Assembly: GCF_011059135.1 (NCBI RefSeq)
Contig: NZ_JAALGD010000020.1
Span: 1 to 64,000 of the forward strand
Source: Brevibacillus sp. SYP-B805
GTDB lineage: Bacteria; Bacillota; Bacilli; Brevibacillales; Brevibacillaceae
Reading direction: 5' to 3'
Length of the DNA: 64,000 bases
Shown here piece by piece: positions 191-31,050 of this stretch. How positions within the stretch are numbered: the first letter of the stretch is position 1; each line of letters opens with the position of its first letter. Made by a program: the position numbers and the translations under genes. Below the pieces are notes generated by a model. That model saw nothing but the letters and a program-made list of their open reading frames with translations. It was not told where the DNA came from and ran no database searches.

Positions 191-283
191 TCATTGACAG
201 CGAATGATTTTCATTATACCATTACATTGTGAGTGATAATCAGTATCAATTGCGTGAAATCGGTCAGACATCAGGAGGTTCGC

Positions 284-754
284 ATGCGCTATCAGATTAA
301 CGGTTTCACGGATATGTACACGGTCATCGCCAACGAGCGAAAAATCGGCGGCGCGCTGGAAGCAAGCAGGATCCGGCTGCGTTCGGGCGAAGAGTATGCC
401 AATGTGGTGCTGACGCGCCTGGAAATGGCGGGCGGCACTTTCTGTTCGCTGGGCTTTGTCACCGAGGACGGGAAACGTCTGATCGTGCATGTCCAGGAGA
501 TCAGCATGATTGTTGAAGCCAGACATGTCAACGTGTGTGAGCTTGCCAACGCTCTCATGCGGGAAGAAAAGACGGCAGAGCGGTTGACCCGCCTGAAGCG
601 CTTGTGCGAGCTGAATGAGGGATGCCTCACGCCGCCGTTTGTCGAGGAAGCGGCGCTCCTGGCCGAAGATATCGGCTATGAACTGGCATGCCGGCACGTG
701 AATCTTTCCTTCCTGCCCCACAAGGATCTTGCGCGCAGCGTGAAGATCGCATAG
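284..754 (+). CDS. Hypothetical protein (156 aa), convergent with the encapsulin gene.
   Basis: ATG at 284 is preceded by AGGAGG (273-278). The open frame runs to the stop at 752-754. I recognise no domain. Confidence 0.45.
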   Translation: MRYQINGFTDMYTVIANERKIGGALEASRIRLRSGEEYANVVLTRLEMAGGTFCSLGFVTEDGKRLIVHVQEISMIVEARHVNVCELANALMREEKTAERLTRLKRLCELNEGCLTPPFVEEAALLAEDIGYELACRHVNLSFLPHKDLARSVKIA

Positions 755-855: not shown

Positions 856-962
856 GGGCCCCCGCCGACACCAGCAAGTGACCCCACTCGGCAAAGCATT
901 AGCGATCGCCGAGTGGGTGGATCGTTCGCTTGGGTCGGCGGGGTTATTTTTCCGCTTCTTCC
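856..962. repeat. Nested GC-rich palindromic repeat (REP/terminator-like family, copy R1).
   Basis: gggcccccgccgac...ccactcggcaaagc...gccgagtgg...gtcggcggggtt then a T-run. The outer arms cccccgccgac/gtcggcgggg enclose an inner hairpin ccactcggc/gccgagtgg. It lies between convergent genes, and the encapsulin stop (944-946) sits inside its right arm. Confidence 0.7.
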
Positions 963-1792
963 AGCGTGCAGATGGCGCTGGGGCGCTTGATGCGCAGCAC
1001 AACGCATTCATACACGCGGAAGACGCTGTTCATCTGTTCGTCCTCCATAAACGCAGTATTGAAATCTTCCGCGATGGCCAGATCGAGATTGTGGCGGCCG
1101 CACGACACCAGCACGCCGGCACGACCCTGGATGGCTGGCGTTTGGTAGACGCCCTCTGTCACCAGGCTGCGGATATGTTCGATTTCCAGGACGTTGGTTC
1201 CCTGATGCACACGATGGAGGAGCGAATACAGCTCCGGGGAGACCGCCAGTGCGTAAGGGCCGCTGTGCCCCATCTTCAGCAGCTTGTTGCGGGCTTCCAC
1301 GATATCGGCGAACGCATTGCCCGACTCCATCCAGTCGCTTTTCAGGTGGGTGAGCCTGCCTGTCACGTTCATCAAGCCGGGCAGCTCGAACGCCGGGGAA
1401 CCATTGAAGATGAGATCGTCCTCCAGGAGCGCGCACCCGGCGGCGGCATTGGCCGCCCCGCTGAAGTCGAGGGGAATGCCGAGCGTCCGCGCTTGCGAGA
1501 TGTCGCGCCAGTAAAGAACAAAATCGTTGTAGAGGATCGGAATCGTCAGGCTGACCCGCCGGCTGGGCTGGGTAAGTTCAAGGCCTTCGCCGCGCAGGTT
1601 TAACGCGCCGACACGCGATTCCTCATAGAGATCGTTGCTGATCGCCTGGATTCCTTCCCCCAACGGGCCGTAGATGTCAATGAACCGGCGGCCCACCAGC
1701 TGGCGCCGGGCCATCTCGACAACCGTTTCGTCAAGCTGGCGCCATTCGTCGGGGGAGAGGGGGGCGTCCGGAAATTTGTGATGCTTCTCCAT
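944..1792 (-). CDS. Family 1 encapsulin shell protein (linocin M18-like), 282 aa.
   Basis: Translation from the ATG at 1792 reads MEKHHKFPDAPLSPDEWRQLDETVVEMARRQLVGRRFIDIYGPLGEGIQAIS, the conserved family-1 encapsulin N-terminus. GGAGG lies 6 nt upstream (gaatGGAGGtatcatATG). The rest aligns with the HK97-fold shell protein through ...VFRVYECVVLRIKRP. Confidence 0.85.
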   Translation of the reverse strand: MEKHHKFPDAPLSPDEWRQLDETVVEMARRQLVGRRFIDIYGPLGEGIQAISNDLYEESRVGALNLRGEGLELTQPSRRVSLTIPILYNDFVLYWRDISQARTLGIPLDFSGAANAAAGCALLEDDLIFNGSPAFELPGLMNVTGRLTHLKSDWMESGNAFADIVEARNKLLKMGHSGPYALAVSPELYSLLHRVHQGTNVLEIEHIRSLVTEGVYQTPAIQGRAGVLVSCGRHNLDLAIAEDFNTAFMEDEQMNSVFRVYECVVLRIKRPSAICTLEEAEK

Positions 1793-2380
1793 ATGATACC
1801 TCCATTCCAAGCGTGATGAGCGTAGACTGCCAACGGCCAGCCCTTTTCCGGCGGGGAAACGGGGAGGAGGCTGCCTCCTTGCCGAAGCCAGCAGATGGTC
1901 CACCTGATGGATCGCGTGCCCTTCATCGTGATCCTCGACGGAAATGACGGCGCCGTGGTCGGACAAGCGTTCGCTCAGGGCTGCCATGATCTCCTTGACG
2001 GTCAGGTAATCGCTTTGGGTCTCTTCGCGCGTCCGGTTCAACCATTCTCGTTTCTCCGGATCGGTGAACTCATAGAGAGACAGCTCCAGATGCTCGCGAA
2101 AATTGTGCAGGCCGAAGCGTTCCAGATTGATGTCGGAAAGCAGGCGCGACAGCTCCCGGTCGCTCAGCTGCTCGCTGCCGGCAGTCAGGGAACGCAGATA
2201 GGGCAGCAGCTCGTTTAGCCGGCCGAGGCGCTGCTCTTCTTCTTCCATGATATGGTGGTAATAAAGACGCGTATGTTCATCCTGCGCATGGTCGACGATC
2301 GGCTGCAGCAGGGCGAGGAAACCGCCGATCGCTTCCCGGGTGCGGGTGAGGATGCTTTCAAGCTGCGAGAAGGCTTGCAA
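1793..2380 (-). CDS. Putative ferritin-like/IMEF-type encapsulin cargo protein with a C-terminal targeting peptide. It reads through in frame into the encapsulin ORF with no stop codon.
   Basis: The ORF starts at TTG 2380 (GGAGG 9 nt upstream). It is acidic and helical (DHAQDEHTRLYYHHIMEEEEQRL...EHLELSLYEF) and ends ...FPAGKGLAVGSLRSSRLEWRYH, which matches the encapsulin targeting-peptide consensus (G-x-L-x-V/I-G-S-L-R/K). The same frame continues into Met-1 of the encapsulin. I re-translated the junction by hand and found no stop. Confidence 0.6.
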
Positions 2381-2439
2381 CGGGACATACCTCCTTTACA
2401 TTGCTATTTTGTACCAAAAATCCAAAAGTTATTAGGGGA

Positions 2440-2475
2440 GAGTATTGTCAAGTTTAATTGGGAATGATAATATTT
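2440..2475 (+). promoter_or_regulatory. Candidate sigma-A promoter in the divergent intergenic region.
   Basis: TTGTCA (2446-2451), then a 17-nt spacer, then TAATAT. It faces the DUF2325-like gene. The -35 hexamer is palindromic with TTGACA on the minus strand. Confidence 0.35.
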
Positions 2476-2501
2476 ATCAATGAGAATGGTTTTCATTATT
2501 A
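2465..2501. promoter_or_regulatory. Two adjacent Fur/PerR-type 7-1-7 boxes.
   Basis: TGATAATATTTATCA (2465-2479) matches the TGATAATnATTATCA consensus at 14 of 15 positions. The next site, TGAGAATGGTTTTCATTATTA, matches the classical 19-21-bp Fur box at about 15 of 21. Both overlap the putative -10 between the cargo/encapsulin operon and the DUF2325 gene. Confidence 0.5.
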
Positions 2502-2558: not shown

Positions 2559-2840
2559 ATGGCATCCATTTTGGTGGTTGGAGGAGACAGACTGGGCAAC
2601 ATCGTGGATTTGCTGCAAAACCAGGGGTTTCAGGAGGTGCATCATGTAAGCGGCCGGAAAAGCTCGCAGACCGGCATCAAGATTCCAAGCGGCGTGGATG
2701 TGATTTTGGTGCTGACCGATTTCATCAACCATAACCTGGCGAAAACCATCAAGCAGCAGGCGAAAGACAGGTGTCTGCCCATCCTGTTCTGCAAACGGTC
2801 GTGTGCCGCCATAGCCAAAGCCTTGTACCAGGTGGCCTGA
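2559..2840 (+). CDS. DUF2325-like small protein (93 aa).
   Basis: MASILVVGGDRLGNIVDLL...VILVLTDFINHNLAKTIKQQAK resembles the DUF2325 family of Firmicutes. RBS gaaggagg lies upstream of the ATG at 2559. Confidence 0.5.
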   Translation: MASILVVGGDRLGNIVDLLQNQGFQEVHHVSGRKSSQTGIKIPSGVDVILVLTDFINHNLAKTIKQQAKDRCLPILFCKRSCAAIAKALYQVA

Positions 2841-3074: not shown

Positions 3075-3275
3075 ATGTTTGGGGTATGGCGTAATGGGGC
3101 CAGGCGAGCTCCTTTGACGACCGACGAAGCGGAGAAACAAAGACGCGGGGGCCACAGGGGGCGTGAGTCTCACATCCCTGAGACGCCCGGATGTTGAGCC
3201 CCCTGCCCGCGTCGCGTTTCGGAGCGGACAAAAGCCCACTTCCTCGCGGGTCGTCAAGAGAGCGAGCAGGAACCA
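3075..3275 (+). repeat. Full-length copy (B) of the ~190-nt structured repeat.
   Basis: atggcgtaatggggccaggcgagctcctttgacgaccg...gggcgtgagtctcacatccctgagacgccc...tgagccccctgcccgcgtcgcgtttcggagcgg...cgggtcgtcaagagagcgagcaggaaccat. The 5' segment gagctcctttgacgaccg is complementary to the 3' segment cgggtcgtcaagagagc, giving a long closing stem. There is an internal hairpin gggcg-tgag-tctca/tgagacgccc. Confidence 0.65.
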
Positions 3276-3367
3276 TTACCCAAGATCGACCGACCATATC
3301 TGCACATGGACCCCGTTGTCATAACGGGGTTTTTGCCGTTGAGCATCGCTTACGTAGGCGGGGTTAT

Positions 3368-3610
3368 TTAATCCAGAACCAGCCGGGCCAGATGCGGTTT
3401 CAGTGAATTAATGCCGATCGCAAAGCCCAGGCATTGGCTGGATTGAATGATAAAGGCGTTTAAGCCGACCACCTCCCCGTGCAAATTGATGAGCGGACCG
3501 CCGCTGTTGCCCGGATTGATCGCCGCATCGGTTTGAAAAATCTCTTCATAGTGGCGTTTGGCCACCTGCAGACGCCGGTTTTTGGCACTGATGATGCCGG
3601 CCGTGACCGG
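3368..3610 (-). pseudogene. C-terminal fragment of a trypsin-like (S1C/HtrA-type, no PDZ) serine protease gene, separated from its 5' half by the ~8.6 kb insertion.
   Basis: Minus-strand translation reads ...[58 protein letters not shown]..., which is the catalytic-Ser motif GNSGGPL. The frame is closed by TAG immediately upstream at about 3611. The N-terminal half (His/Asp region) is at 12195-12734. Confidence 0.75.
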
Positions 3611-3625
3611 ATTCTCACGTAAAGC

Positions 3626-5233
3626 CTAAAACGGCGGACGGAGATGCAGCTGACCGTTCAGGCGGAACGCGACCTCCAGGGTAAAGGGCGTGATGCGGCT
3701 GCCGGTCTGTTTTTCCCGGCGCGTGAGCCGCACCGATTCGATGAGGAAGCGCAGCAGCCTGTTTTTCTCCGCCTTGCCGCTCAAGGCGTGATAAACGGCG
3801 GGGAACGATTGGAGCCGCTCGGCGAGCCGTTCTTTTTGCCCATCATCCAGCTGTTGGGGAGACGGCTGTTTTTCTTTAAGGAGCATGTTCAGCCTGCCCA
3901 ATTGATCGGATATCTCTGACCGTCTCCGGATAAACTCCTCGGAAGTGTATACCCCGGTCTCAAAGCCGTGGTAGACGGCGGCCAGCTGTTTTTGCAGGGA
4001 TGTCCGCTGCCTGGACAGGGCGGCGGCGGATCGGTCGGCTGGGGAGGCTCGGCGCTGCTTTCCGGCCGCTGCATGGGCAGCGATCATGCGGCGGATCCGC
4101 TCCGGCGCGGGCGGCTCGACGCAGGCGAGAAAGGAGAGAAGCATCTCTTCCACGGCCCGGTACTTCACATAGGTGCAGCCTGCGGTTGTGCACCAGAGCA
4201 TCTCCTTTTCATAGACGCTCACGCTGCCGTCCTTTTTGCGATAGGTACAGCGGGAAGCCTGCCGCACCATCTTTTTGCCGCACAGTCCGCAGCGGATCAG
4301 GCCGGATAGTTCCGACGGGCTCTGGTCGAGAGGGATGGAGGGGCGGCGGCGCTGCCGTTTGTGATGCACCTGCTGGTACACGTCGGGAGAGATGATGGGG
4401 GGATGGGCATTTGGTACGATGATCCATTCGTCCGGCGGCCGTCTCGCGCGTTTCCGCTGTGTCTCAACCGTCGTGCTGTAGCGGATCTCCCCGATATATA
4501 CCGGATTGTGCAGGATTTTTTTAACCGCAGAGGCATTCCATTCCGGTAGCCCGGTGGGGGAAGGAATGCCGCTGTTGGTCAGGAGGGAGGCGATGGTCCG
4601 GCAGCCCAGCTCTCTCCCGTTCAGGCCCTCCAGGTACAGCCGGTAGATCAGCCGGACGACTTCCGCTTCCCCTGGCTCGATCACCAACCGCTGTGTCCTC
4701 GGATTGGTCCGGTAGCCGTAGGCGGGCCTGGAGCCCATGAAGCGTCCCGACATGGCGTAGGCGTATTTGGCCCCCTGCATCCGTTCGCGAATGGTTTCAA
4801 ATTCCTCGCGGGAGAGAAACATTTCGAAACGGATCTGCCGCAGATCGTTGACATTTTTGGGATCATACAGCCGGTAGGGGGTCAGGATGAAGATCCGTTT
4901 CCGACGGATCAGCTCGTAGACCCGTCCGTAATCCTGAAAATCGCCCCGCGTCAGCCGGGAGATTTCTTTCACGGCGATGCAGTCGTACCTGCCCTCCTCC
5001 AGATCAGCCAGTACCTGGCTGAAGACGGGCCGGGATTCGATCTTGTCGCCGCTGCCGATTTCCTCTGCGAGGTCGTAGGGAATGCCGTACTCGCCCAACA
5101 CGCGTTCCATGACGCTCCGCTGCATGGCGATGGTATCCTCGCCGGTCCGTTTTTCCCGTTCCGCATCTTCCCGGGAACGGCGGAGGTAGCTGACGATCCG
5201 CCTGATTCTTGCGCCTGCCGGCAGTTTGTTCAT
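3626..5233 (-). CDS. Large serine recombinase (535 aa; resolvase catalytic domain, recombinase domain, zinc ribbon).
   Basis: N-terminus ...IVSYLRRSREDAE...RPVFSQVLADLEEGRYDCIAVKEISRLTRG is resolvase-like. The central part PAYGYRTNPRTQRLVIEPGEAEVVRLIYRLYLEG...IPSPTG...WNASAVKKILHNPVYIG is recombinase-like. CGLCGKKM...C..GC is a zinc ribbon, followed by a C-terminal coiled coil. Confidence 0.85.
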   Translation of the reverse strand: MNKLPAGARIRRIVSYLRRSREDAEREKRTGEDTIAMQRSVMERVLGEYGIPYDLAEEIGSGDKIESRPVFSQVLADLEEGRYDCIAVKEISRLTRGDFQDYGRVYELIRRKRIFILTPYRLYDPKNVNDLRQIRFEMFLSREEFETIRERMQGAKYAYAMSGRFMGSRPAYGYRTNPRTQRLVIEPGEAEVVRLIYRLYLEGLNGRELGCRTIASLLTNSGIPSPTGLPEWNASAVKKILHNPVYIGEIRYSTTVETQRKRARRPPDEWIIVPNAHPPIISPDVYQQVHHKRQRRRPSIPLDQSPSELSGLIRCGLCGKKMVRQASRCTYRKKDGSVSVYEKEMLWCTTAGCTYVKYRAVEEMLLSFLACVEPPAPERIRRMIAAHAAAGKQRRASPADRSAAALSRQRTSLQKQLAAVYHGFETGVYTSEEFIRRRSEISDQLGRLNMLLKEKQPSPQQLDDGQKERLAERLQSFPAVYHALSGKAEKNRLLRFLIESVRLTRREKQTGSRITPFTLEVAFRLNGQLHLRPPF

Positions 5234-26990: not shown

Positions 26991-27132
26991 GCAGGTGATT
27001 CACCTCGGTTTCCTTGAGATTCCTTCCACTTTCATTATAACGGAGCGGTGCGCTTTTCACTCCATGTCCGTTTGACAACTTTTTGCCCAGAGAGGAGCCA
27101 TCTTCTCATTGTATAGACAAAGTCTGTCCTGT

Positions 27133-27325
27133 CATGGATGATGGTTCCCGCTCGCTCTCTTGACGACCGGCGAGGAAGTGGGCTTTTGTCCGCTCCGAAA
27201 CGCGACGCGGGCAGGGGGCTCAACACATCCGGGTGTCTCAGGGATGTGAGACTCACGCCCCCCGTTTCCCCGCGTCTGCGTTTCTTCGCTGAGTCGGTCG
27301 TCAAAGGAGCTCGCGTAGGCCCCAT
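27133..27325 (-). repeat. Full-length copy (C) of the ~190-nt structured repeat, reverse orientation.
   Basis: Its reverse complement aligns with copy B over ~190 nt (catggcgtgatggggcctacgcgagctcctttgacgaccgac...gaaccatcatccatga) with about 10 substitutions, including compensatory-looking changes in the stem. Confidence 0.65.
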
Positions 27326-30759: not shown

Positions 30760-31050
30760 ATTGACAGAGCGGGTTTCGCTGTGTTACATATATGGCGAAT
30801 GGATGTTGGAAAACAGGGCGTTGAAAGACGAGAGTAGCAGGGCAGATCGCCATGAAGAGAGCTGGTGGATGGTGCAAACCAGCGGCGCCGCCTTTGTGAA
30901 TTACACGTCTGGAGCCAGCCGGACCCCACCGGACGGATCAGGCCGTTATCCTGTCGAGCGGAAAAGGTGCAGCGCGCCTTTTCAACTAGGGTGGTACCGC
31001 GAGAGCAATCTCGTCCCTATAGGGGGCGGGATTTTTTATTTTCAAGAAAA
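30760..31050 (+). promoter_or_regulatory. T-box riboswitch leader of tyrS (Tyr specifier UAC).
   Basis: AGAGA/GA-motif region around 30825. Specifier loop gaatTACAcg (UAC at 30902-30904, followed by a purine). Conserved T-box AACTAGGGTGGTACCGCG at 30983-31000. A hairpin plus T-run sits at about 31013-31045. Confidence 0.8.

Follow-up and report, generated by a model that had tools for sequence, protein, structure and literature searches.

This work describes an encapsulin locus of Brevibacillus sp. SYP-B805 in which an iron-related cargo protein and the encapsulin shell are encoded in one frame. The DNA analyzed, referred to here as the window, is a stretch of 64,000 nucleotides (contig NZ_JAALGD010000020.1, positions 1 to 64,000). 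On its reverse strand, a single open reading frame (ORF) runs from a TTG start codon through an IMEF cargo domain, a predicted disordered tether, a targeting peptide, and nine junction codons into a family 1 encapsulin shell; the coordinates of these and other features are collected in Table 1. At the junction, the fused protein reads ...PAGKGLAVGSLRSSRLEWRYHMEKHHKFPDAP, and with its flanks on both sides the junction can be written as ...PAGKGLAVGSLR-SSRLEWRYH-MEKHHKFPDAPL. In related loci, the position of SSRLEWRYH is taken by 0 to 9 codons and a stop, followed by an untranslated spacer. The spacing between the Shine-Dalgarno (SD) sequence and the cargo start codon is the same in the window as in these relatives. 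Because the sequence has no stop before the shell, translation from the TTG must yield an IMEF-tether-shell protein, for which a mass of 54.2 kDa is predicted.

A preliminary description of this DNA had reported that the frame is open from the targeting peptide into the first methionine of the shell, and that a GGAGG sequence lies 6 nucleotides ahead of the shell ATG. Reading of the sequence bears out both statements: no stop codon is present in any of the three frames of the 27-nucleotide junction spacer, and GGAGG (1803 to 1799) is followed by TATCAT and then by ATG. The stop-free cargo-shell architecture at 944 to 2380 is confirmed. The part sizes given earlier needed some correction. While the fusion of ~54 kDa agrees with the calculated mass, the N-terminal part comprises 196 rather than 195 amino acids, and the shell, if made alone, has a mass of 31.5 rather than 32 kDa.

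Table 1. Features of the window, with positions counted from its first nucleotide
Feature	Position	Strand	Basis
Fused ORF, 478 codons (cargo, targeting peptide, 9-codon junction, shell)	944..2380	-	ORF list, HMM matches
Stop codon of fused ORF	944..946	-	read from sequence
Family 1 encapsulin shell, 282 amino acids	947..1792	-	HMMs, 6NJ8 alignment
Internal ATG (Met-197), NCBI-annotated shell start (WP_165215131.1)	1790..1792	-	database record, 6NJ8 alignment
Nine sense codons SSRLEWRYH, residues 188-196	1793..1819	-	read from sequence
Internal SD GGAGG, then TATCAT (6 nucleotides), then ATG	1799..1803	-	read from sequence
Targeting peptide GKGLAVGSLR, residues 178-187	1820..1849	-	motif comparison with relatives
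Predicted disordered tether between IMEF domain and peptide, residues 141-177	1850..1960	-	pLDDT <50 in both AlphaFold models
IMEF ferritin-like four-helix-bundle domain, residues 7-138	1967..2362	-	PF24309, TIGR04536, PDB 6N63 match
Start codon TTG of fused ORF	2380..2378	-	read from sequence
SD AGGAGG, 9 nucleotides before TTG of fused ORF	2390..2395	-	read from sequence
Two adjacent Fur-box-like palindromes, TGATAATATTTATCA (1 mismatch) and TGAGAATGGTTTTCA (3 mismatches)	2465..2495	.	consensus scan
Divergent DUF2325 gene, 93 amino acids, kept neighbor of the IMEF-shell pair in closest relatives	2559..2840	+	synteny
65-amino-acid ORF matching solely the C-terminal end of trypsin-like peptidase domains	3368-3565	-	domain match
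Large serine recombinase gene	3626..5233	-	neighbor of locus
Dispersed repeat of ~115-150 nucleotides, three copies, core 87-100% identical	65-180; 3169-3285; ~27120-27260	+; +; -	
T-box leader RF00230 (110 bits, E = 1.9e-23), unrelated to the fusion	30812-31021	+	Rfam

The upstream half of the ORF, previously proposed as a ferritin-like or IMEF-like candidate, is a true IMEF cargo by profile hidden Markov model (HMM) comparison and by predicted fold. The Pfam model IMEF_Flp (PF24309) matches with an E value of 3.6e-49 and 166.5 bits (cutoff of 27), and it is the sole cargo match in the fused protein, with no Pfam match there to EncFtn-like, Rubrerythrin, or Ferritin. The NCBIfam equivalog for IMEF cargo (TIGR04536) matches residues 2 to 187 at 2e-68 and 230 bits (cutoff of 100), covering model positions 1 to 193 of 194, and by sequence the cargo half matches PDB entry 6N63 at 4.3e-35. 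A structure prediction of the N-terminal part, which had been suggested earlier as a check, gives a four-helix bundle: AlphaFold places helices at residues 2 to 30, 35 to 67, 74 to 102, and 108 to 141, with a predicted local distance difference test (pLDDT) score of ~83 to 98, and the sole significant PDB fold match of this model is again IMEF 6N63 (template modeling score of 0.86, 41% identity). The cargo half is predicted to carry the IMEF fold together with the conserved metal-binding residues.

We also considered whether selection on the cargo has been relaxed. The cargo half shows no departure from any column that is at least 95% conserved across 99 other cargos. When cargo divergence was regressed on shell divergence across the clade, the window gave a residual of +7 points, in part owing to a short variable linker, and on this comparison the cargo is not diverging faster than its shell would lead one to expect. 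With conserved columns intact and divergence unaccelerated, relaxed selection on the cargo was rejected. The cargo gene lies directly 5′ of the family 1 shell gene, in the order and on the strand found in all relatives. No second cargo with a targeting peptide was found within the window; two other LxVGSL-like matches were rejected as cargo, as they lie in long ORFs with local sequence that looks membrane-like by eye.

The downstream half fits its earlier description as a canonical family 1 encapsulin. It is matched by Linocin_M18 from Pfam (PF04454; residues 204 to 460, 8e-75, 252 bits, cutoff of 24.3) and by encap_f1 from NCBIfam (NF041155; residues 205 to 473, 1.4e-87, 293 bits, cutoff of 100), the latter over model positions 5 to 261 of 261. 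Residues 1 to 281 of the Quasibacillus thermotolerans shell (6NJ8) align to residues 197 to 477 of the fused protein (E = 2.6e-118), such that Met-197 falls on residue 1 of 6NJ8. The shell half is modeled by AlphaFold with pLDDT above 90 and is 86 to 88% identical to its nearest relatives. Two columns that are kept in 89 of 90 other shells are changed in it, K89N (LYKDF to LYNDF) and T231C, a number of departures inside the normal range. An icosahedral shell of T=4 geometry would be expected of an IMEF system.

The start site of a separate shell has also been kept. At this site the sequence GGAGGTA is invariant in the closest relatives, the mRNA of the junction is predicted to be less structured than shuffled sequences (z = +1.6), and the internal SD is unpaired in the centroid fold. 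For these reasons, free shell is probably also made from the internal SD and ATG. A consensus scan for a sigma-70-like promoter inside the cargo gene, from which a shell-only transcript could arise, found none. In the Brevibacillus clade (L001 to L036 and L081 to L087; 40 loci), cargo genes start with GTG in 33 cases, TTG in 3, and ATG in 4. A non-ATG cargo start in 36 of 40 loci, set against shell genes that nearly always start with ATG, seems to reflect a clade-wide translational bias toward less cargo than shell through start-codon strength.

Between the two halves, the tether region varies in length and sequence among relatives. The targeting motif that follows it, LAVGSLR, is internal in the fused protein, with 291 residues after it, rather than at the C-terminus of a separate polypeptide. 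Among 78 loci, the first residue of the motif is Thr in 74 and Ser in 3, and Ala (residue 182) in the window alone. The earlier view of an intact, typical targeting peptide therefore stands for the presence of the motif but not for its first residue. The change from Thr to Ala would fit a peptide that tethering has rendered superfluous and that is therefore less constrained. Cargos of relatives end 0 to 9 residues past the position of the Arg that closes the window's peptide, and N-terminal TVGSL peptides have been reported on ferredoxins (PMC8346489). As relatives tolerate up to 9 extra residues and ferredoxins carry the peptide at the other terminus, the internal peptide may still dock on the shell. 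A joint block alignment of cargo and shell was dropped, since MAFFT stacked cargos on the shell half despite 16 anchor rows derived from the window.

Whether the fusion is unique was gauged by a survey of related loci. One genome per species, together with three metagenome contigs from the closest protein matches, gave 77 other loci, and a metagenome scan added 19, for a total of 96; a locus was counted only if its targeting peptide and its shell start could both be located. In each of the 96, one or more stop codons separate peptide and shell start, leaving the window as the sole exception of 97, and the observation is more than a chance one. This answers the comparison of cargo-encapsulin pairs that the preliminary description had called for. 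At the protein level, 57 clusters of cargo proteins all measure 115 to 215 amino acids, and none is fused. An exhaustive HMMER search with the 478-amino-acid protein against 1.84 billion cluster representatives returned no protein matching both halves; where matched shells were extended at the N-terminus, the extension was a cytochrome domain, a signal-peptide-like extension, a His-rich tail, or a rubrerythrin/EncFtn domain. Within the reach of these sequence searches, the IMEF-encapsulin fusion at this locus is a singleton.

The same survey indicates how near other species come to this arrangement. Among the 77 genome loci besides the window, 32 carry the shell ATG in the frame of the cargo, and in 17 of those 32 a single stop codon intervenes. 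Another 6 of the 19 metagenome loci are likewise one stop codon from the same fusion, which brings the total to 23 of 96. With so many loci one stop away, a single substitution would make the fusion in about a quarter of species. Given many near-fusions but one fusion, the window would represent a rare innovation, a recent accident, or an error.

The closest syntenic relative, L081, has the same helix-turn-helix, DinB, serine recombinase, trypsin-fragment, and DUF2325 neighbors, and its junction reads GSLRQQFS, then TGA, 17 nucleotides, and ATG. The window has GAA at the position of this TGA, and its spacer is 5 nucleotides shorter. Reconstruction of the exact mutation (a deletion is hinted at by a TCATCAC word shared with the spacer of B. 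thermoruber) was attempted and dropped, as the spacers are too diverged to be aligned reliably. Two further junction types were seen among the relatives. In L038, L055, and L061 (Anaerobacillus, Aquibacillus), the cargo stop overlaps the shell start, with gaps of -1, -8, and -4 nucleotides, respectively; the cargo ORF extends 7 to 10 residues beyond the targeting motif, and the genes are translationally coupled but out of frame. A one-base frameshift would likewise fuse cargo to shell in these loci. In L070, L075, and L093 (Neobacillus and related), the cargo-shell spacers are unusually long, at 220 to 280 nucleotides, and carry a tandem TTGGCG[GA]AAT motif every ~22 to 24 nucleotides between the cargo stop and the shell start.

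In public records, only the shell is visible. At 100% identity, the shell half corresponds to WP_165215131.1 / NGQ97228.1 from the draft assembly of Brevibacillus sp. SYP-B805 (71.6-kb contig), which NCBI records as a 282-amino-acid protein starting at the internal ATG. Among cargo homologues, no cargo protein of SYP-B805 was found, the best match being 70% identical, and exact look-ups of the 478-amino-acid fused protein returned no record. The upstream 196 codons appear to be without a protein record, and the fusion appears to be invisible at the protein level. A metagenome scan for contigs of the same species gave nothing closer than 64% identity among the matches listed.

Upstream of the fused ORF, two adjacent Fur-like boxes (2465 to 2479, with one mismatch to TGATAATNATTATCA, and 2481 to 2495) coincide in part with promoter-like hexamers, both those of the cargo gene and those of DUF2325, which is oriented divergently. 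The intergenic block that contains them (2440 to 2500) is near-invariant across relatives. From these motifs, the fused unit appears to be iron regulated, and the shared block suggests that the cargo gene and the DUF2325 gene are co-regulated by iron. A third Fur-like box with one mismatch (TGATAATCAGTATCA) lies at 234 to 248, at the start of a convergent, encapsulin-proximal ORF on the forward strand (233..754), which in position and orientation matches a 156-amino-acid gene without a Pfam match in L081 to L083.

Synteny of the cargo-shell pair is conserved with L081 to L083. The trypsin-fragment ORF looks like a gene remnant; a 61-amino-acid gene occupies the same place in L081 and L082, and in L081 it adjoins the serine recombinase. 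Two copies of the dispersed repeat bracket a 3.1-kb segment that holds the fused gene and DUF2325, beside the serine recombinase gene. We considered these 115-nucleotide direct repeats as att-like cassette sites, but a third copy, at ~27.2 kb in the opposite orientation, led us to reject the idea that they are specific to this locus. Rfam gives no match for the repeat, which folds no better than shuffled sequence, and is absent from the 108 related loci that were fetched.

With both halves intact, we propose a mechanism in which the loss of a stop codon has changed how cargo is loaded. In SYP-B805, the stop codon and part of a short cargo-shell spacer would have been lost in a way that left both genes in frame. 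Ribosomes starting at the cargo TTG would then read through the peptide and the nine junction codons into the shell, and the iron-mineralizing four-helix domain would hang off the shell N-terminus on a flexible tether of ~56 residues. Independent initiation at the retained GGAGG and ATG would most likely give ordinary 31.5-kDa shell. Both products share the whole shell domain and hence should co-assemble, with IMEF inside and cargo loaded covalently. In established structures of family 1 encapsulin shells, the N-terminus faces the lumen; for this reason, and because natural N-terminal fusions assemble, the IMEF domain would be placed on the inside. The ~56-residue tether should also let IMEF domains of neighboring subunits dimerize.

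Cargo per shell would then depend on how often ribosomes initiate at the weak TTG relative to the internal ATG, and not on peptide binding alone. Given the start-codon asymmetry, most subunits would be free shell and a minority would be fused. The earlier proposal, that cargo loading would follow from the proportion of fused to free shell protein, is a reasonable inference. For the mechanism as described, with stop loss, a 54.2-kDa fusion and a 31.5-kDa free shell that co-assemble, and covalent cargo loading, we consider the chances to be about even. The fuller reading, a hybrid system that makes tethered IMEF-shell and free shell from one ORF, with stoichiometry fixed by the two starts and a redundant peptide already drifting (Thr to Ala), is offered more tentatively.

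In the literature that was searched, ferritin-like fusions to encapsulins are only of the EncFtn/Flp type and occur in archaea, a cytochrome fusion from anammox bacteria being the other reported case, and IMEF figures as an unfused cargo with its peptide at the C-terminus (PMC8346489, PMC11202242). As no IMEF-shell fusion was found in the literature or among the 1.84 billion representatives, the arrangement does, as first suggested, differ from known loading systems. The IMEF system of Q. thermotolerans (6NJ8 shell, 6N63 cargo; T=4, iron storage) shares with the window the same two families, with the cargo upstream of the shell. Such Bacillota IMEF systems also resemble it in having a TVGSL-type peptide after a disordered linker and an iron-related setting, which in the window takes the form of the Fur-like boxes. 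However, cargo and shell of Q. thermotolerans are separate polypeptides, loaded solely by non-covalent binding of the C-terminal peptide, whereas the window has no separating stop, an internal peptide, and Ala in place of Thr.

The archaeal Flp-fusion encapsulins (Pyrococcus furiosus, PDB entries 2E0Z and 5N5E) likewise carry a ferritin-like, iron-oxidizing domain on the N-terminus of a family 1 shell, and the fusion takes the cargo inside upon shell assembly (PMC8346489, PMC11202242). They differ in having a two-helix EncFtn/Flp domain that forms decamers, a linker of ~8 amino acids without a targeting peptide, T=3 shells, and conservation across archaeal clades. The window, on the other hand, has a four-helix IMEF domain (reported to form dimers), a ~56-amino-acid tether with a targeting peptide, a retained SD and ATG for the shell, and a bacterial host, and it is known from a single genome. 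A Flp-fusion example, P0183, matches Rubrerythrin and EncFtn-like models, unlike the window's protein. Our verdict is that the window fusion would work like the archaeal Flp fusions without belonging to that group, because its cargo family differs, its tether is long and holds a peptide, the shell start survives within the ORF, and relatives do not share the fusion.

Cytochrome-fusion encapsulins of anammox Planctomycetes resemble the window in placing an N-terminal cargo domain on a bacterial family 1 shell (PMC8346489). Their cargo, in contrast, is a diheme cytochrome with a signal peptide, with no targeting peptide in the linker and no sign of a retained internal start; an example was recovered in the HMMER search (P0064, 377 amino acids, with CxxCH motifs). 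In their expression logic, the closest parallels to the window are in-frame nested genes with internal initiation, such as the C/Nu3 protease-scaffold pair of phage lambda, IF2 alpha/beta, and the long and short forms of CheA. In each, a single frame encodes two products of different length with a common C-terminus, in a ratio set by the strengths of the two starts, and the lambda pair serves capsid assembly in an HK97-fold system. These pairs are conserved and have been shown by experiment, whereas the arrangement in the window would be the by-product of a lost stop in one genome, with dual expression inferred from sequence.

Several observations weigh against the proposed mechanism. Although 23 loci stand one stop codon from fusion, all 96 others keep the stop, which suggests that fusions are normally selected against and that the one in the window may be a young and deleterious change. 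Initiation at the internal ATG may also be reduced by ribosomes arriving from the cargo part. AlphaFold left the internal targeting peptide undocked on the shell, with residues 149 to 194 at pLDDT below 50, in a run that used the shell alignment alone, with no cargo alignment, and is uninformative on peptide docking. The singleton is known from one draft assembly of one strain, and the look-ups turned up no second assembly of the species. In B. laterosporus, a putative 25-kDa cargo and a 31.4-kDa shell are separate proteins that co-purify (PMC10313851), so that the normal state in the genus is the unfused one; the adjacent 25-kDa hypothetical protein of this species is about the size of its IMEF cargo P0050 (215 amino acids). 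Taken together, the single fusion among 97 loci, the apparent purifying selection against read-through, the undocked peptide in that limited model, and the two-protein state of the genus fit a real but non-adaptive event. The stop would have been lost recently, in the lineage or in culture, and the fusion would be neutral or harmful, with no designed loading mechanism. The 54-kDa protein would misassemble or be degraded, and the strain would live on free shell or would in effect have lost the system. Such an accident sits poorly with a cargo half that shows no relaxed constraint, with an intact promoter, intact Fur-like boxes, and both ribosome-binding sites in place, and with the natural N-terminal cargo fusions from which other shells of family 1 are built; a tether this long and flexible should, moreover, permit IMEF dimerization across neighboring subunits. 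We regard the accident as unlikely, though by a smaller measure than the two explanations that follow.

The single draft assembly (one 71.6-kb contig), the stop in every relative, and the NCBI annotation of the shell alone could also point to a sequencing or assembly artefact, in which the true genome has a stop or frameshift after the targeting peptide and the genes are separate. An indel error can be excluded as the cause, since no frame of the spacer has a stop and a one-base indel would therefore not restore a normal cargo end; the cargo would continue far into the shell gene in another frame, one such frame being open down to 1600. The spacer also has no homopolymer run longer than two bases, and the genes flanking the fused ORF are intact and as long as the corresponding genes of L081. 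Only one particular substitution error could account for the join, and such errors are rare in consensus assemblies; the unique Thr-to-Ala change in the peptide would then have to be explained separately. On these grounds, the indirect evidence favors a real sequence over an error, and an artefact seems improbable. If the sequence is real, the two-product mechanism could still fail at the internal start. Elongating ribosomes can occlude internal ribosome-binding sites, and were upstream translation to block this one, the fusion would be obligate, with an IMEF on every shell subunit and no free shell. Archaeal fusion shells do consist wholly of fused subunits (PMC11202242). The window, however, has kept a strong SD, optimal spacing, and an ATG in mRNA that is predicted to be locally open, and the weak TTG upstream leads us to expect modest traffic through the junction. 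By a rough volume estimate, 240 tethered domains of 22.8 kDa would occupy roughly one-quarter of the space inside a T=4 shell, at the expense of mineral. An obligate fusion is accordingly rated as improbable.

Encapsulins serve as models of organelles and as scaffolds for engineering, and the amount of cargo per shell is a central, poorly controlled variable in them. If the locus is real, it would offer a natural experiment, set in the largest iron store built of protein that is known, on loading by a tether versus loading by a peptide, as well as a ready design for tuning loading through start-site strength. It would also indicate that the loss of one stop in an in-frame operon is a simple route to fusion encapsulins of the archaeal kind. 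For annotation, the locus calls for caution: as the public record shows the shell alone, surveys of protein records cannot see such fusions, which may be why none has been reported. Should the fusion prove erroneous or accidental and harmful, the stop codons kept in 96 of 97 loci would in turn indicate selection against fusion in IMEF systems. If the hybrid reading is true, SYP-B805 would hold the first IMEF fusion and the first ferritin-like cargo fusion in Bacteria, and would provide a snapshot of a path by which two-gene operons may have given rise to the fusion encapsulins of archaea.

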